NCBI GenBank assembly: GCA_964588165.1
Contig: CAZPMS010000006.1
Coordinates: 3,425-67,424 of the forward strand
Direction of reading: 5' to 3'
From: an uncultured Gammaproteobacteria bacterium
Lineage (GTDB): Bacteria > Patescibacteriota > Patescibacteriia > UBA1558 > UBA10009
Length of the DNA stretch: 64,000 nt
This document shows, piece by piece, positions 25,169 to 53,933 of this stretch; positions within the stretch are counted from its first letter, which is position 1, and each line of letters starts with the position of its first letter. A program made the position numbers and the translations under genes. The notes under the pieces are model-generated. The model did no database searches, was not told the DNA's origin, and was given only the letters and a program-made list of their open reading frames with translations.

Positions 25169-25228
25169 AAATTTTAGCTACTAGATACAACCCCAGCCAA
25201 AGGCTGGTGAGCCTACGGCTCATACTCG

Positions 25229-32034: not shown

Positions 32035-32130
32035 TGGCAGGGATTTGCCCCGCTTTTCGTGAAAGGCGGGATAAAAACCCAGACCAACGGTTTTGGACCC
32101 AGCCCTTCGCGAAGGGCTGGGTGGAGACCC
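32035..32130 (-). pseudogene. partial copy of the tRNA-Trp 3' half interrupted by two GC-rich hairpins
   Basis: Minus strand reads GGTCTCCA[cccagcccttcgcgaagggctgggtcc]AAAACCGTTGGTCTGGGTT[tttatcccgcctttcacgaaaagcgggg]CAAATCCCTGCCA. It matches positions ~29-76 of the adjacent tRNA-Trp and has no 5' half. Confidence 0.6.
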
Positions 32131-32148
32131 TCAAAAATCATATTATTT

Positions 32149-32223
32149 TGGCAGGAGCGCTAGGATTTGAACCCAGACCAACGGTTTTGGAGACCGTCAT
32201 GCTACCATTGACACCACGCTCCC
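32149..32223 (-). tRNA. tRNA-Trp (anticodon CCA)
   Basis: GGGAGCGTGGTGTCAATGGTAGCATGACGGTCTCCAAAACCGTTGGTCTGGGTTCAAATCCTAGCGCTCCTGCCA; cloverleaf with anticodon loop CTCCAAA; CCA encoded. Confidence 0.85.
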
Positions 32224-32258
32224 ATCAAAAAAATATGATTATCTTAAATTTAATCTCT

Positions 32259-32483
32259 TTAAAAGACCATGATAAGCGATCCATATTGTTTTAGTTTTCT
32301 TTCCCTCACTTTGGCATCTATTTCTTTCTGATACGCTTCATAATAAAACAATTTGGGATTTTTCATCCGTTTAGTAGTATACACTTTTCCACTTTTATGT
32401 TCAGACAATCGTCTATTTAGGTTATTAGTATACCCTATGTATATTTTCCCATGATCATCAAGTTGTAAATAAACATAATACAT
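32259..32483 (-). CDS. small GIY-YIG nuclease family protein (74 aa)
   Basis: YYVYLQLDDHGKIYIGYTNNLNRRLSEHK matches the GIY-(10)-YIG...R...E core; ends 35 nt upstream of tRNA-Trp. Confidence 0.65.
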   Translation of the reverse strand: MYYVYLQLDDHGKIYIGYTNNLNRRLSEHKSGKVYTTKRMKNPKLFYYEAYQKEIDAKVRERKLKQYGSLIMVF

Positions 32484-33308: not shown

Positions 33309-33415
33309 CCTACAGTTTATGCCGCCTTTAGGAGGTGGCAAAACTGTTGCTCCCTGCCCCGTTTACTCCAAACAAATGTGAGGAGTTATGCGGGGTACCA
33401 TTGAGCTACAACGGC
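33309..33415 (-). pseudogene. partial tRNA-Thr(TGT)-like 5' copy with hairpin insertions in the D-loop and anticodon loop
   Basis: GCCGTTGTAGCTCAATGGTA[ccccgcataactcctcacatttgtttggagtaaacggggcagg]GAGCAACAGTTTTG[ccacctcctaaaggcggcataa]ACTGTAGG. Acceptor GCCGTTG differs from the intact gene (GCCGAGA). No T-arm or 3' end. Confidence 0.6.
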
Positions 33416-33553: not shown

Positions 33554-33638
33554 TGGTGGGCCGGGCAGGATTCGAACCTGCGAAGGCAGAGCCAACAGAT
33601 TTACAGTCTGTCCCGTTTGACCGCTTCGGTACCGACCC
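33554..33638 (-). tRNA. tRNA-Tyr (anticodon GTA), long variable arm
   Basis: GGGTCGGTACCGAAGCGGTCAAACGGGACAGACTGTAAATCTGTTGGCTCTGCCTTCGCAGGTTCGAATCCTGCCCGGCCCACCA. Confidence 0.85.
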
Positions 33639-33885
33639 ACAAATTTTTAACTAGCTCCTTAAAGGCTCTTCCTCCTTTATAAGATTTTATCAGAAGCTCT
33701 CTTTTATATGCATCTTGTTTAGAAAAATATCTTTCCGAATAAACCAACTTCCAAGGGACACCTGATTTTGTTGATTTTACAAAACCTTTATTATGTCTAG
33801 CTAAACGATTAAATAAATTCTTACAATGACCTGTATAGTATCTATCTAAAGATTTACTATGCAATATATAAACTATAAACATCAC
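33601..33885 (-). CDS. small GIY-YIG nuclease family protein (94 aa) whose last 13 codons and stop lie inside tRNA-Tyr
   Basis: FIVYILHSKSLDRYYTGHCKNLFNRLARHN GIY-YIG core. The C-terminus WVGTEAVKRDRL* is encoded by the tRNA-Tyr 5' half (tgggtcggtaccgaagcggtcaaacgggacagaCTGTAA), with TAA sitting in the anticodon loop. Confidence 0.6.
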   Translation of the reverse strand: MMFIVYILHSKSLDRYYTGHCKNLFNRLARHNKGFVKSTKSGVPWKLVYSERYFSKQDAYKRELLIKSYKGGRAFKELVKNLWVGTEAVKRDRL

Positions 33886-33938
33886 TTTTCATTTAAGATT
33901 TATGCCCGCCTATGGCGGCACCCCGCCGTAGGCGGTGG

Positions 33939-33995
33939 CAGTCTGTCCCGTTTATCCCGCCAAAGGCGGCGATTTGACCGCTTCGGTACCGACCC
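33939..33995 (-). pseudogene. partial copy of the tRNA-Tyr 5' half ending after anticodon-loop ...CTG, with a D-loop hairpin insertion
   Basis: GGGTCGGTACCGAAGCGGTCAAA[tcgccgcctttggcgggata]AACGGGACAGACTG then unrelated hairpin sequence; lies immediately upstream of the GIY-YIG ORF. Confidence 0.65.
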
Positions 33996-33997
33996 GA

Positions 33998-34085
33998 TGG
34001 AGCCGTTGTGCGGACTCGAACCACAAACCCCTTCCTTACCCCCGCAAGATTTCGTTTCACTCAATCTGCGGGGCAAGCATGGAAG
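33998..34085 (-). pseudogene. partial tRNA-Thr(GGT)-like 3' half with a 39-nt hairpin in the anticodon loop
   Basis: CTTCCATG[cttgccccgcagattgagtgaaacgaaatcttgcggggg]TAAGGAAGGGGTTTGTGGTTCGAGTCCGCACAACGGCTCCA; 3' acceptor strand CAACGGC complements the GCCGTTG of the 5' fragments. Confidence 0.6.
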
Positions 34086-34103
34086 TATATCCTGCCAATA
34101 GCC

Positions 34104-34179
<76 letters not shown>

Positions 34180-34202: not shown

Positions 34203-34273
34203 AAGTGCTCCCTGCCCCGCTTACTCCGAACAAAAGTAGGAGTTATGCGGGGTACCAACTGAGCTACAACGGC
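34203..34273 (-). pseudogene. partial tRNA-Thr(GGT)-like 5' fragment with a D-loop hairpin
   Basis: GCCGTTGTAGCTCAGTTGGTA[ccccgcataactcctacttttgttcggagtaagcggggcagg]GAGCACTT. It stops in the anticodon stem, where the 3' fragment at 33998..34085 begins (CTT overlap). Confidence 0.6.
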
Positions 34274-34318
34274 AATAATGTTTTTTTAAAAAAACATATT
34301 CTTATGGCATAACTTCTT

Positions 34319-34371
34319 TCTACCCCAGCCAAAGGCTGGTCCGCCTCTGACGGAAACTGAGCTATGTCGGC
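34319..34371 (-). pseudogene. third truncated tRNA 5' fragment with a D-loop hairpin
   Basis: GCCGACATAGCTCAGTT[tccgtcagaggcggaccagcctttggctgg]GGTAGA. Confidence 0.45.
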
Positions 34372-43921: not shown

Positions 43922-43965
43922 ACGCCATTCCGAGCTTGTCGAGGAATCCCGTTATTCCGGAAAGA
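43922..43965. repeat. H1-family truncated element
   Basis: ccattccgagcttgtcgaggaatcccgttattccgg directly 3' of the GIY-YIG gene. Confidence 0.5.
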
Positions 43966-44236
43966 CGATTTTTAAATTCTTATTAACTCGCTTTATTAAA
44001 TCCAATTTTTTAAAACGACTCCATTTTTTTAACTGTTTTTCTCTATCAATCGCTTCAATAATACTTTCATAACTTTCAAAATAAACTAATTCATCAACAT
44101 TATATTTTTTAGTAAATCCTTTTAATTTTAATTGATGTTCATCTAATCTTCTAGCTAAATCATTGGTAACTCCTATATAAATCACTGTTCTCCTATGATT
44201 CATTAAAAAATAGACGTAAAATTCTTTTTGTAACAC
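43952..44236 (-). CDS. GIY-YIG nuclease family protein (94 aa)
   Basis: FYVYFLMNHRRTVIYIGVTNDLARRLDEH canonical GIY-YIG core. Confidence 0.75.
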   Translation of the reverse strand: MLQKEFYVYFLMNHRRTVIYIGVTNDLARRLDEHQLKLKGFTKKYNVDELVYFESYESIIEAIDREKQLKKWSRFKKLDLIKRVNKNLKIVFPE

Positions 44237-44309
44237 ATTTTAAACTTTCCTACCCTGATACATTTATTAACGGGATCTCTCCACCTTGGTCGAGATGACG
44301 TCTGAGAAA

Positions 44310-48886: not shown

Positions 48887-48975
48887 ACTAATGTAGATAG
48901 ACGAAAATACTGCCCGCCAAAGGCGGGTCCGCCCTTGGCGGAAACTACCCGGCAAACTTGTTCGCCGAAGAGGCG

Positions 48976-49004
48976 AAATAAAAAACCCGCCGAACTTGGC
49001 GGGA
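48976..49004 (-). terminator. intrinsic terminator after the lipoprotein gene 49157..50077
   Basis: Minus strand cccgccaagttcggcggg followed by ttttttat. Confidence 0.6.
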
Positions 49005-52562: not shown

Positions 52563-53933
52563 TTAAGACTTTAATTCTTCCATCATCTTAATTCTTTTTT
52601 CTATCAATTCCTTAGTTCCAATATCCGGCCTATAGAAAACCGGACCGGTTATCTTTTTTATTTCTGCTTCTACCATTTTTTCTGCTTCATATAAATCTTC
52701 ATGAATACCCACTAATGCCACGGCCCTGGAACCGGCTAGATACAGGCCGTCTTCTCTTTGATCGACTGAGGCATAAAAAACTTTAACTTTAGACTGGTCT
52801 ACTTTAGAAACATCAATCTTTTTATCTTTGGTAGGATTTTCCGGATAACCTTCTGGCACTACATATTTACAGACTGTAGATTTTTTTTGAAGCTCTGGCT
52901 TTAATTGATCTAAATTACCGTTAATAATGGCTGAACATATTTCTAAAAAATCTGCTGATTTGTTGGCGGGAAAAGTTTTAGGCGGGAAAAGTGGCAACAC
53001 ATTCATGGCCTCTGGATCGCCTAACCTGGCATTATACTCAATCAGTTTGACTCCATTCTTAGTTAGCATAAAACCGCCATACAAAAATCCCTTATAGCTT
53101 TTACCAAACTTCTTTTTTAAAGCAACAGCCGTAGCTTCATTTACCCGACGGGCTTCTTTAATATCTTCTTCATCTAAAAATGGTAAAGAAAAATCTGCCA
53201 TAGAATAAGAACCCATGCCACCGGTATTAGGTCCTTTATCATCTACTAGAGCTCTTTTATTATCTTGAACCGCTGGCAGATGTAATAAATGTTCGCCATC
53301 ACAAAAACTCATCAAACTAAATTCCTGGCCAACCAATTTTTCTTCTATAACAACCTTATGACCTGATTCAAAATGTTTTTTTATAATCTCCAGGCCTTCG
53401 TTCATATTTTTAAAATGGTCGCCAGCCACAGTTACTCCTTTACCGCCAGCTAAACCGTCTTGTTTAATTACAAAATTTTCTTCCAAATGTTGAATCCAGT
53501 CTTCTACCCCTTCCATATCTTCACCCAGTCCTTCGCGAAGAGCTGGGTCAAAAACCATAAACTCGGGACTGCCATTTATTTTATAATCCTTAAATAATTC
53601 ACGAGTGAAGGCTTTACTGGTTTCTATCTGGGCTAAATCCTTGTCCGGGCCTACTGATGGAATGCCAACTTGGGATAAAACATCTACTACTCCTTGGCCT
53701 AAAGGAGCTTCTGGACCGATAAGGCAAAAATCAATAGATTTTTCGGTGGCATAACTAACTATAGAAGTATTATTTTTAAGCTCGCCAACTTTATAATCAG
53801 TTGCCAGCTCTTTAGTGCCTGGATTTGTGGATGAGGCAAATACATAAAGCTCTATTTCTTCTTTAGAAGATTTTAAAACAGAAGCCATGGCATGCTCTCT
53901 GGCACCAGAGCCAACTAACAAAACTTTTTTCAT
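52563..53933 (-). CDS. purD: phosphoribosylamine-glycine ligase
   Basis: 456 aa; ATP-grasp motifs; LIEYNARLGDPE. Confidence 0.9.
   Translation of the reverse strand: MKKVLLVGSGAREHAMASVLKSSKEEIELYVFASSTNPGTKELATDYKVGELKNNTSIVSYATEKSIDFCLIGPEAPLGQGVVDVLSQVGIPSVGPDKDLAQIETSKAFTRELFKDYKINGSPEFMVFDPALREGLGEDMEGVEDWIQHLEENFVIKQDGLAGGKGVTVAGDHFKNMNEGLEIIKKHFESGHKVVIEEKLVGQEFSLMSFCDGEHLLHLPAVQDNKRALVDDKGPNTGGMGSYSMADFSLPFLDEEDIKEARRVNEATAVALKKKFGKSYKGFLYGGFMLTKNGVKLIEYNARLGDPEAMNVLPLFPPKTFPANKSADFLEICSAIINGNLDQLKPELQKKSTVCKYVVPEGYPENPTKDKKIDVSKVDQSKVKVFYASVDQREDGLYLAGSRAVALVGIHEDLYEAEKMVEAEIKKITGPVFYRPDIGTKELIEKRIKMMEELKS

Follow-up and report, generated by a model that had tools for sequence, protein, structure and literature searches.

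A tRNA-Trp gene between a frameshifted GIY-YIG nuclease gene and a palindrome-interrupted tRNA-Trp fragment in a Patescibacteriota contig: a putative nuclease-plus-tRNA replacement cassette

tRNA genes are usually seen as the most stable, vertically inherited parts of a genome. Here, we report a tRNA-Trp locus (positions 32035-32483) in a 64,000-nucleotide stretch of DNA (the window; assembly GCA_964588165.1, contig CAZPMS010000006.1, positions 3,425 to 67,424) from an uncultured bacterium placed in the Patescibacteriota by GTDB. All features of the locus lie on the minus strand, in the order GIY-YIG open reading frame (ORF), tRNA-Trp, partial tRNA-Trp copy. Two palindromes interrupt the partial copy, and a third copy of the palindrome lies elsewhere in the window. 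The features are as follows.

32239..32483, minus strand: GIY-YIG nuclease gene, frameshifted (Pfam PF01541, E = 8e-13; homologue alignment)
32232..32240, minus strand: leader arm extending the tRNA-Trp acceptor stem (AATCATATT; inverted repeat)
32149..32223, minus strand: tRNA-Trp(CCA), intact, CCA encoded (ARAGORN; Rfam RF00005, 55.4 bits)
32137..32145, minus strand: trailer arm (AATATGATT; inverted repeat, minimum free energy [MFE] fold)
32035..32133, minus strand: pseudo-tRNA-Trp 3′ piece, tRNA positions ~25-76 (direct reading, 29-nt direct repeat)
32094..32125, no strand: palindrome copy 1, 24-nt core CCCAGCCCTTCGCGAAGGGCTGGG at 32098-32121 (perfect inverted repeat)
32047..32072, no strand: palindrome copy 2, decayed (ATCCCGCCTTTCACGAAAAGCGGGGC), between GGGTT and CAAATCC of the T loop (hairpin at 32049-32070)
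53521..53550, no strand: palindrome copy 3, two mismatches, TCA duplication, inside purD (52563-53933, minus strand)

The intact gene at 32149..32223 is the functional tRNA-Trp copy. The partial copy begins 15 nt beyond it and is without the 5′ acceptor strand and the D arm (positions 1-24 missing). Its blocks are TGAgGGTCTCCA (32133..32122; 11/12 identical to tRNA positions ~25-36), the first palindrome, TCCAAAACCGTTGGTCTGGGTT (32097..32076; 22/22 identical to tRNA-Trp), the second hairpin, CAAATCC, and CTGCCA, which ends at 32035; between the last two, 8 nt of the T-stem/acceptor 3′ strand (TAGCGCTC) are deleted. A repeat search returned the tRNA-Trp and the partial copy as a 29-nt direct repeat at 90%. 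An earlier note, made from the letters of the window alone, had seen this second copy; it starts nearer position 25 than the position 29 given there, and the spacer is 15 nt rather than 20 nt. No tRNA was called in the partial copy by ARAGORN or by Rfam with the threshold relaxed to E ≤ 10 (chance matches only). The sequence of the locus is 99.4-100% identical across seven independent metagenome assemblies, which, together with analogues in more than 40 species, rules out an assembly artefact.

Partial 3′ copies beside intact tRNAs are a hallmark of integrase-type elements, and the pair could at first sight be the duplicated attachment (att) site of such an element at the tRNA-Trp 3′ end. We reject this on anatomy and regard it as extremely improbable: only 15 nt, and no element body, separate the tRNA from its copy, whose sequence begins in the anticodon arm and has insertions within it, the flanking ORFs (PRK-like kinase, DUF4015, L33) include no integrase, and equivalent loci carry upstream 5′ copies, which integrase att sites do not make. 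No relatives of a neighbouring 206-aa protein were found in JGI metagenomes. The disrupted tRNA genes of archaea share short hairpin inserts at the D, anticodon, and T loops with the partial copy; they differ in that the pieces here are incomplete and lie by an intact gene, the host is bacterial, and the inserts have DNA target duplications. An archaeal-type intron or split tRNA was ruled out, as the exons of the partial copy are incomplete (removal of the inserts does not restore a full tRNA) and an intact gene is adjacent; no bulge-helix-bulge context was seen by eye at the inserts.

The open part of the nuclease gene (32259-32483, 74 aa) stops 35 nt before the 5′ end of tRNA-Trp, as the earlier note had reported. 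It belongs to a damaged copy of a stand-alone GIY-YIG family (115 homologues at E ≤ 1e-5) whose members are nearly all ~81 aa long (range, 79-85 aa) and end in ...KLKQYGSSYxGLLKRLxLK. In tblastn, aa 1-69 and aa 70-81 of the family fall in different frames of the window: residues 1-69 are read in one frame and the tail (AYHGLLKRLNLR, then a stop) in another, ending at 32239, 15 nt before the tRNA. Judged from this comparison, a 1-nt deletion caused the frameshift. A decayed 5′ tRNA half was considered for the sequence directly before tRNA-Trp (caatatggatcgcttatcatggtct) and rejected, this being the frameshifted nuclease C terminus. Decay of the nuclease gene, of a kind typical for selfish nuclease genes and directly visible here, is also seen as truncated matches in L043, L047, and L079.

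Residues Y5, Y15, G17, R25, H29, E49, R60, and E61 are invariant in the family alignment, and all fall within the in-frame residues 1-69, so that the ORF has the GIY and YIG motifs and the catalytic Arg, His, and Glu of the PF01541 superfamily. The nearest solved structures are the UPF0213 proteins 1zg2 (E = 1.1e-6, profile positions 2-66) and 1ywl (E = 8e-5). Like the UPF0213/COG2827 proteins (BH0048, 1zg2; EF2693, 1ywl; the Escherichia coli YhbQ family), the members have a single domain within the size range of that group (~80-110 aa) and can be aligned with it throughout; to our knowledge, no link of UPF0213/COG2827 proteins to tRNA genes or to mobility has been described. The I-TevI structure 1mk0 matches only marginally (E = 0.42), and the group I intron endonuclease model TIGR01453 reaches 21 bits, far below its cutoff of 56, with the match confined to the first ~35 residues. 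Enzymes of the I-TevI/Seg type have a catalytic and a C-terminal DNA-binding domain in ~200-250 aa, whereas the family here has 79-85 aa; the predicted product consists of the catalytic domain alone plus a short basic tail and is not an enzyme of that type. PHROGs gave no match for the tRNA-linked GIY-YIG clades.

A profile search with the 81-aa family in one genome per GTDB species found 80 loci, all in metagenome-assembled or single-cell genomes, with hosts mostly in named groups of the Patescibacteria (the candidate phyla radiation, CPR), others being under different automatic labels. With two further loci (L008 and L009), the set comprised 82 loci. At 46 of these, tRNA-Trp(CCA) lies 0-130 nt 3′ of the ORF on the same strand (typical distance, 5-20 nt); at two it lies directly upstream, and at L019 the identical architecture is found on tRNA-Arg(CCT), whose anticodon loop is one base off that of Trp. 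Most tRNA-Trp-linked loci bear palindrome-interrupted tRNA-Trp pieces, and the trio of GIY-YIG ORF, intact tRNA, and hairpin-bearing partial tRNA does recur, as the earlier note had proposed. The putative nuclease-plus-tRNA replacement module is present in dozens of CPR/Patescibacteria species; no prior description of it was found in the literature searched. Below, we call the ORF and its tRNA the putative cassette.

Architecture and polarity could be read directly from these loci. Upstream of the ORF there is mostly a 5′ part of tRNA-Trp split by one to three perfect palindromes of the family seen in the window (center TCGCGA, arms covarying); of 48 loci, at least 34 have the 5′ half upstream and none has it downstream. 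Palindrome-bearing 3′ halves are downstream of the intact tRNA in ~11 loci and upstream in only two (L034 and L041); downstream pieces like that of the window occur in L013, L014, L023, L042, L046, L063, L073, L080, and the metagenomic L118. The earlier note had set the tRNA-Trp geometry apart from that of the neighbouring tRNA-Tyr; the 3′ piece does lie downstream, but it is the downstream arm of one nested architecture and not a separate arrangement. L040 has the mirror form (tRNA-Trp, ORF, displaced 3′ piece). Among 15 cases of 5′ pieces, 12 terminate within tRNA positions 39-45, and all four cases of 3′ pieces start within positions 25-29, so both usually contain the whole anticodon arm. 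Divergent 5′ pieces in L009 and L012 have compensatory stem changes, and in those of L011, L012, and L030 the anticodon stem is a chimera, its strands on the two sides of the palindrome no longer matching.

Other GIY-YIG clades sit likewise on tRNA-Tyr, tRNA-Thr(GGT), tRNA-Ser(GGA), tRNA-Ser(CGA), and tRNA-Ala, with similar fragments, and distant relatives of the ORF below ~47% identity have no tRNA linkage. A third GIY-YIG ORF in the window (43952-44236) has no adjoining tRNA; the tRNA link is specific to clades, and not all GIY-YIG genes have it. The association that the earlier note had suggested counting is found at the 46 related loci, and on other tRNAs for other clades, with this third ORF as an unlinked case.

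Palindrome copy 1 is a perfect palindrome of 26 nt (ACCCAGCCCTTCGCGAAGGGCTGGGT; inverted repeat 32097-32109/32110-32122 in the repeat search) that splits the anticodon loop of the partial copy. It is flanked by TCCA at 32122-32125 and 32094-32097, and this duplication marks it as an insertion with target-site duplication. The earlier note had quoted a perfect 27-nt palindrome placed exactly after the anticodon; the 27-mer is not palindromic, and the position is that of an insertion flanked by TCCA. Its second hairpin, in the T loop, stands and can now be identified as a decayed member of the same palindrome family. This copy 2 resembles ATCCCGCCnTTCGCGAAnGGCGGGAT of L009, L013, L015, and L018, and the downstream fragment of L014 has palindromes in the same two loops as the partial copy of the window. 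Copy 3 is a 27-nt in-frame insertion in purD (24 nt plus the TCA duplication) that encodes ..PALREGLG.., and all solved PurD structures in the PDB alignments show a 9-residue gap exactly there. With up to three mismatches, the 24-mer has two matches in the window against 0 expected.

Mobility of the palindrome is directly apparent beyond the window also. An exact-pattern scan of JGI metagenomes found 80 loci with the palindrome family. Among 70 unique sites, 27 have 4-nt duplications (TCAA, 16; TCCA, 9), 29 have duplications of at least 3 nt (6.3 expected from re-paired flanks), and nine are the tRNA-Trp anticodon loop. Terminal inverted repeats, target duplication, and many dispersed copies liken the family to miniature inverted-repeat transposable elements, and on the evidence of these sites the palindrome is a separate, dispersed mobile mini-element with the target TCAA/TCCA and a 4-bp duplication. 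Since TCCA (Trp anticodon loop) and TTCA (D and T loops) serve as targets, insertions fall in loops, and since these targets lie within tRNA loops, only dead tRNA copies would keep them. A templated filler copied from purD is an unlikely source, since purD, too, acquired its copy by insertion with a separate duplication, and family members occur widely. No Y1 transposase partner turned up, although no genome-wide search for one was made.

Palindrome density is 4.1 per kb within 150 nt of tRNA-linked ORFs and 0.25 per kb further away (16-fold), and the palindrome type follows the ORF clade: CCCAGCC/CCCCGCC..TTCGCGAA in one clade, CACCCGTCGCTCGCGAGCGACGGGTG in another, and double mini-hairpins in the Tyr and Ser clades. 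Both patterns make a functional link between palindrome and nuclease possible. Rickettsia palindromic elements, yeast mitochondrial GC clusters, Allomyces double-hairpin elements, and REP/RAYT are similar in being dispersed GC-rich hairpins with a target preference in AT-rich compact genomes, and miniature palindromic elements also share sites in RNA genes and in-frame sites in protein genes (here purD). The present element differs in being 24 bp, perfectly palindromic, flanked by a 4-bp TCAA/TCCA duplication, and concentrated in the loops of tRNA fragments beside GIY-YIG genes. Free palindromes often sit as TTGA[core]TTGACA, i.e., within a −35-like hexamer, and others precede T-runs (such free copies are found in L093, L114, L125, L136, L144, L148, and L152); the palindrome may create or disturb promoters and terminators.

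Inverted-repeat arms surround the intact tRNA-Trp (32136-32159/32217-32240) and the tRNA-Thr(GGT) of the window (34086-34112/34175-34201), and the MFE fold has tRNA-Trp clamped between leader and trailer. Leader/trailer pairing, with a sequence that differs per locus, is also found in L014, L035, L038, L042, L046, L048, L063, and L108. In cassette tRNAs, the complementarity is 9-15 bp and prolongs the acceptor stem; pairing of at least 7 bp occurs in 21% of 148 tRNAs, against 3.8% with shuffled flanks. Our guess is that the pairing clamps the fold or serves as a processing stem. In several leaders, the last letters before position +1 are TGAT.

The folding z-score of the locus region is −3.8, and both palindromes fold as hairpins. 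Such a strong fold would suit a functional RNA, whether the hairpin-bearing piece is co-transcribed with the tRNA as a processing, insulating, or terminator element or pairs with a 5′ piece into a split tRNA-like structure around the ORF mRNA. Covarying palindrome arms, T-runs of terminator-like appearance after some free copies, and a leader/trailer pairing that is retained while its sequence changes agree with this. We nevertheless hold both variants to be very unlikely. The window has no 5′ partner, its piece has an 8-nt deletion and a decayed second palindrome, the intact tRNA-Trp is always close by, and a promoter/terminator scan of the locus stayed at background level, with no terminator-like site scored and no Rfam match to the piece; moreover, loop-less perfect palindromes with target duplications, one of them in a protein gene, point to insertion at the DNA level.

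An empty site was found in a syntenic relative, L191 (with L190 and L193), which has the order TPR protein, tRNA cluster, L33, 135-aa ORF, tRNA-Trp (protein identity to the window: TPR, 64%; L33, 78%; 135-aa ORF, 56%). Its tRNA-Trp stands alone, without ORF, fragment, or palindrome, in answer to the comparison that the earlier note had called for; the conserved site thus has an occupied and an empty allele, as homing endonuclease sites do. The tRNA genes of the two loci and the tRNA-Thr(GGT) region of the window compare as follows.

tRNA-Thr(TGT), L191 versus window: 72/75 identical
tRNA-Tyr, L191 versus window: 78/85 identical
tRNA-Trp, L191 versus window: 53/75 identical
tRNA-Thr(GGT), L191 versus window: 60/76 identical
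34272..34205, minus strand: old tRNA-Thr(GGT) 5′ fragment, acceptor GCCGTTG
34179..34104, minus strand: intact tRNA-Thr(GGT), nested, with 11-bp leader/trailer inverted repeats
34090..33998, minus strand: old tRNA-Thr(GGT) 3′ fragment, CAACGGC

The two tRNAs of the window with discordant alleles, Trp and Thr(GGT), are exactly those with leader/trailer inverted repeats and older flanking fragments, a discordance that is directly observed. The old Thr(GGT) fragments are mutually complementary and hairpin bearing, and a 4-nt ACTT duplication is found where they bracket the intact gene. Their acceptor type is that of the tRNA-Thr(GGT) resident in L191, as in a replacement with a foreign inner and a native outer gene. 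In silico deletion of the inner tRNA and the hairpins gave an ARAGORN-valid old tRNA for Thr(GGT) of the window, Thr(TGT) of L038, and Trp of L016, and nesting of a new tRNA inside an old one is proven for these three. Two of the five tRNAs of the window look like recent xenologous replacements amid the layered remains of their predecessors.

Several further observations concern these sites. At 34273-34371 (minus strand) there is a 5′ fragment of tRNA-Thr that is older still (GCCGACATAGCTCAGTT, double hairpin, GGTAGA), with aagaagttATGccataagaatATGttttttt after it; the equivalent position in L191 holds an intact 81-aa GIY-YIG gene before tRNA-Thr(GGT), and the gene before the tRNA-Thr(GGT) of the window appears to have been lost by deletion. 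Serial invasion is suggested by two other loci: the cassette tRNA-Trp of L043 (AGGGCCA type) is intact, and a tRNA-Trp of the same type in L016 (1750-2011) is split in the anticodon loop by a second, ORF-less tRNA-Trp (AGGCTCG type). Between L191 and L192, 97% identity starts at the anticodon-loop hairpin of tRNA-Tyr (~1086-1105), upstream of which the genes are wholly different and the tRNA-Tyr 5′ allele is another one; the hairpin marks a recombination or rearrangement breakpoint. The boundary of resident and incoming sequence lies at the anticodon-loop hairpin here, and likewise in the chimeric 5′ pieces.

Polarity and nesting bear on the simplest account of the partial copy, a local tandem duplication by replication slippage or break-induced microhomology recombination, after which the copy decayed and was struck by unrelated palindromes, with the GIY-YIG gene at most stimulating breaks. 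The fragment, 15 nt away from the neighbouring tRNA, agrees with it fully over 22+7+6 nt, the palindromes are an independent dispersed family, and SegB, encoded in a phage tRNA cluster, drives tandem amplification of tRNA and truncated segB by way of breaks and microhomology (PMC13096335). A tandem duplication leaves unaccounted for the strict polarity and the recurrent anticodon-arm boundaries across many species, the divergent 5′ pieces with compensatory stem changes (L009 and L012), the proven nesting, and the discordant tRNA-Trp allele next to the empty site of a relative. We consider it unlikely.

Our preferred reading is that the nuclease gene and its own tRNA-Trp are a selfish cassette that took over the tRNA-Trp locus, and that the partial copy at 32035-32133 is a dead, non-functional tRNA-Trp remnant flanking this cassette; we give this reading as a whole a probability of roughly 0.55. 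The intact tRNA-Trp probably came along with the cassette. The nuclease or a partner activity would first break the resident tRNA gene in the anticodon arm, and the cassette would be installed within the old gene, presumably by break repair. The insertion would not be lethal, because the cassette brings an intact tRNA with the identity of the old one. What is displaced of the old gene would stay behind as flanks, 5′ upstream of the ORF and 3′ downstream of the new tRNA, and may act as homology arms for further spread. The 24-bp GC-rich palindromes would then insert in the remnants, with selection a likely reason for their bias toward dead copies, and leader/trailer pairing may clamp the live tRNA to its fold despite look-alike neighbours. 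In the last stage, the nuclease gene would decay. The part of the protein in the break, its cutting site, and the way in which the cassette is copied are inferred. The window locus shows a late, decaying stage, with the ORF frameshifted, the 5′ piece lost, and the 3′ piece carrying two palindromes and a deletion; L028, which shares the ORF leader attaagaaaagcgattATG with the window, still has its 5′ piece.

Several points weigh against this reading. The 81-aa protein is without the DNA-binding domain of characterized GIY-YIG homing endonucleases, and we know of no cleavage activity or target for it. Nests without an ORF exist (Thr(GGT) of the window and L038), so the ORF is not always present, and most metagenome copies of the palindrome have no GIY-YIG ORF on their own contig. 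The 3′ Trp piece of the window matches the adjacent intact tRNA (22/22 past the palindrome) and not the L191 allele; it is therefore not demonstrably the original resident and may have travelled with the cassette, been homogenized by gene conversion, or been duplicated locally. Finally, the incoming tRNA keeps the old anticodon arm (Thr(GGT) of the window and L016), and an arm-specific nuclease would cut its own tRNA, which leaves self-immunity unexplained. Immunity through a resistant allele with an altered anticodon arm was considered and is unsupported, as old and new copies share the arm at both loci.

No mechanism of self-immunity is needed if the GIY-YIG protein is instead a nuclease that moves DNA bounded by inverted repeats. 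The palindromes would then be minimal elements without cargo, and units of inverted repeat, tRNA, and inverted repeat, with an optional ORF, would be the cargo-bearing form; both would insert at short targets in tRNA loops with ~4-bp duplications, and the fragment in the window would be an older tRNA copy so struck. This would account for the 4-bp duplications around palindromes, for the nested tRNA-Thr(GGT) with its 11-bp inverted repeats and the ACTT duplication at its flanks, for the nested inserts of L016 and L038 at the anticodon-loop sites of the hairpins and with terminal inverted repeats, and for the enrichment of palindromes beside ORFs. Palindrome type following ORF clade would fit as well, but this correlation could stem from shared host ancestry. 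We know of no GIY-YIG enzyme that is a transposase; the leader/trailer repeats vary in sequence among loci, so the protein could not recognize them as ends; and the many palindromes without an ORF on their contig count here also. We find hairpin-element transposition doubtful. A broader proposal, that stand-alone 80-aa GIY-YIG proteins of CPR bacteria drive an unrecognized class of mobile DNA, in which tRNA genes are replaced by nesting, fossil tRNA halves are stacked, and hairpin DNA (from 24-bp palindromes to tRNA cassettes bounded by inverted repeats) is mobilized by structure- or loop-directed cutting, is advanced here only tentatively.

Under the preferred reading of a selfish cassette, the known systems closest in logic would be the mobile ORFs of fungal mitochondria (Allomyces atp6; Glomus atp6, atp9, cox2, and nad3). 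There, an endonuclease ORF (GIY-YIG in Glomus atp9) enters an essential gene (atp6, atp9, cox2, or nad3) and supplies a foreign C terminus in place of the native one, which persists farther downstream as an unexpressed duplicate (PMC3630166); L040 has literally that layout, and a displaced duplicate lies beyond the functional copy by the ORF in the window and at 48 comparable loci. The present system differs in that the host gene is a bacterial tRNA gene and not an organellar protein gene, a whole tRNA is often supplied and nested in the old one, the ORF is usually upstream and accompanied by a displaced 5′ piece, the protein has no more than 81 aa, and the remnants are colonized by a dedicated palindrome family. 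Free-standing GIY-YIG genes of T4-like phages resemble it in being embedded among tRNA genes: breaks by SegB in a phage tRNA cluster promote inheritance or duplication of tRNA and nuclease, and truncated copies arise (PMC13096335). Seg proteins, however, are ~200 aa long with DNA-binding domains and are phage borne, whereas the proteins here are of the UPF0213 type, with genes on the chromosomes of CPR cells, where the native tRNA-Trp locus is their site; nested tRNAs and hairpin-interrupted tRNA halves are not described for Seg systems.

Similar modules and hairpins occur elsewhere in the window. The tRNA-Tyr module (33554-33995, minus strand) consists of a 5′ half, a GIY-YIG ORF, and an intact tRNA.

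33995..33905, minus strand: tRNA-Tyr 5′ half, identical to the intact gene, with a D-loop mini-hairpin and an anticodon-loop double hairpin
33885..33601, minus strand: GIY-YIG ORF of the tRNA-Tyr module, whose frame enters tRNA-Tyr by 38 nt and stops at the anticodon TAA
33638..33554, minus strand: intact tRNA-Tyr

Relatives of this ORF are ~79 aa long and stop just ahead of the tRNA (L191). Just upstream of the intact tRNA-Thr(TGT) is the 5′ portion of a gene resembling tRNA-Thr(TGT) (acceptor GCCGTTG; 33309-33415, minus strand), with an anticodon-loop hairpin at TTTG^TAA and a long D-loop hairpin that is the same as that of the old Thr(GGT) fragment at 34205-34257. The third GIY-YIG ORF (minus strand, 94 aa; region 43946-44276) has an aminoacyl-tRNA-synthetase-like gene on one side and the next ORF on the other; a perfect inverted repeat of 9 bp (atcccgtta/taacgggat) encloses it, as do small hairpins whose loop is TCGACAAGCTC-like, a motif similar to one in L008. 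GC-rich mini-hairpin clusters (CCGCCnnnGGCGG and CCAGCCAAAGGCTGG) at 48913-49003 and 25193-25221 are of the double-hairpin type of the Thr fragment at 34325-34355; one lies upstream of tRNA-Asn beside a possible 5′ tRNA scrap (GCCGGGTAGTT) and the other in an ordinary intergenic spacer.

Among the systems compared here, we know of none that joins a bare 81-aa GIY-YIG gene, nested replacement of a whole tRNA, and a dedicated 24-bp palindrome in bacterial chromosomes. The instance in the window is a degenerate copy, and its interest rests on the family that it reveals. If the preferred reading is true, an RNA gene that is essential and single-copy can be invaded by a minimal nuclease gene, with the host surviving through the replacement that is carried along, and fungal mitochondrial mobile ORFs would have a bacterial counterpart at the level of tRNA. 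A function would follow for a subgroup of the uncharacterized UPF0213 family, for which tRNA-Trp gene DNA and the palindrome would be concrete biochemical substrates; pseudo-tRNA calls and broken annotations in CPR genomes would be explained, and a 24-bp mobile palindrome that also inserts in frame into proteins would be revealed. Should the more tentative reading of a novel class of mobile DNA be true, the turnover of tRNA genes in these minimal genomes would be driven by parasites.

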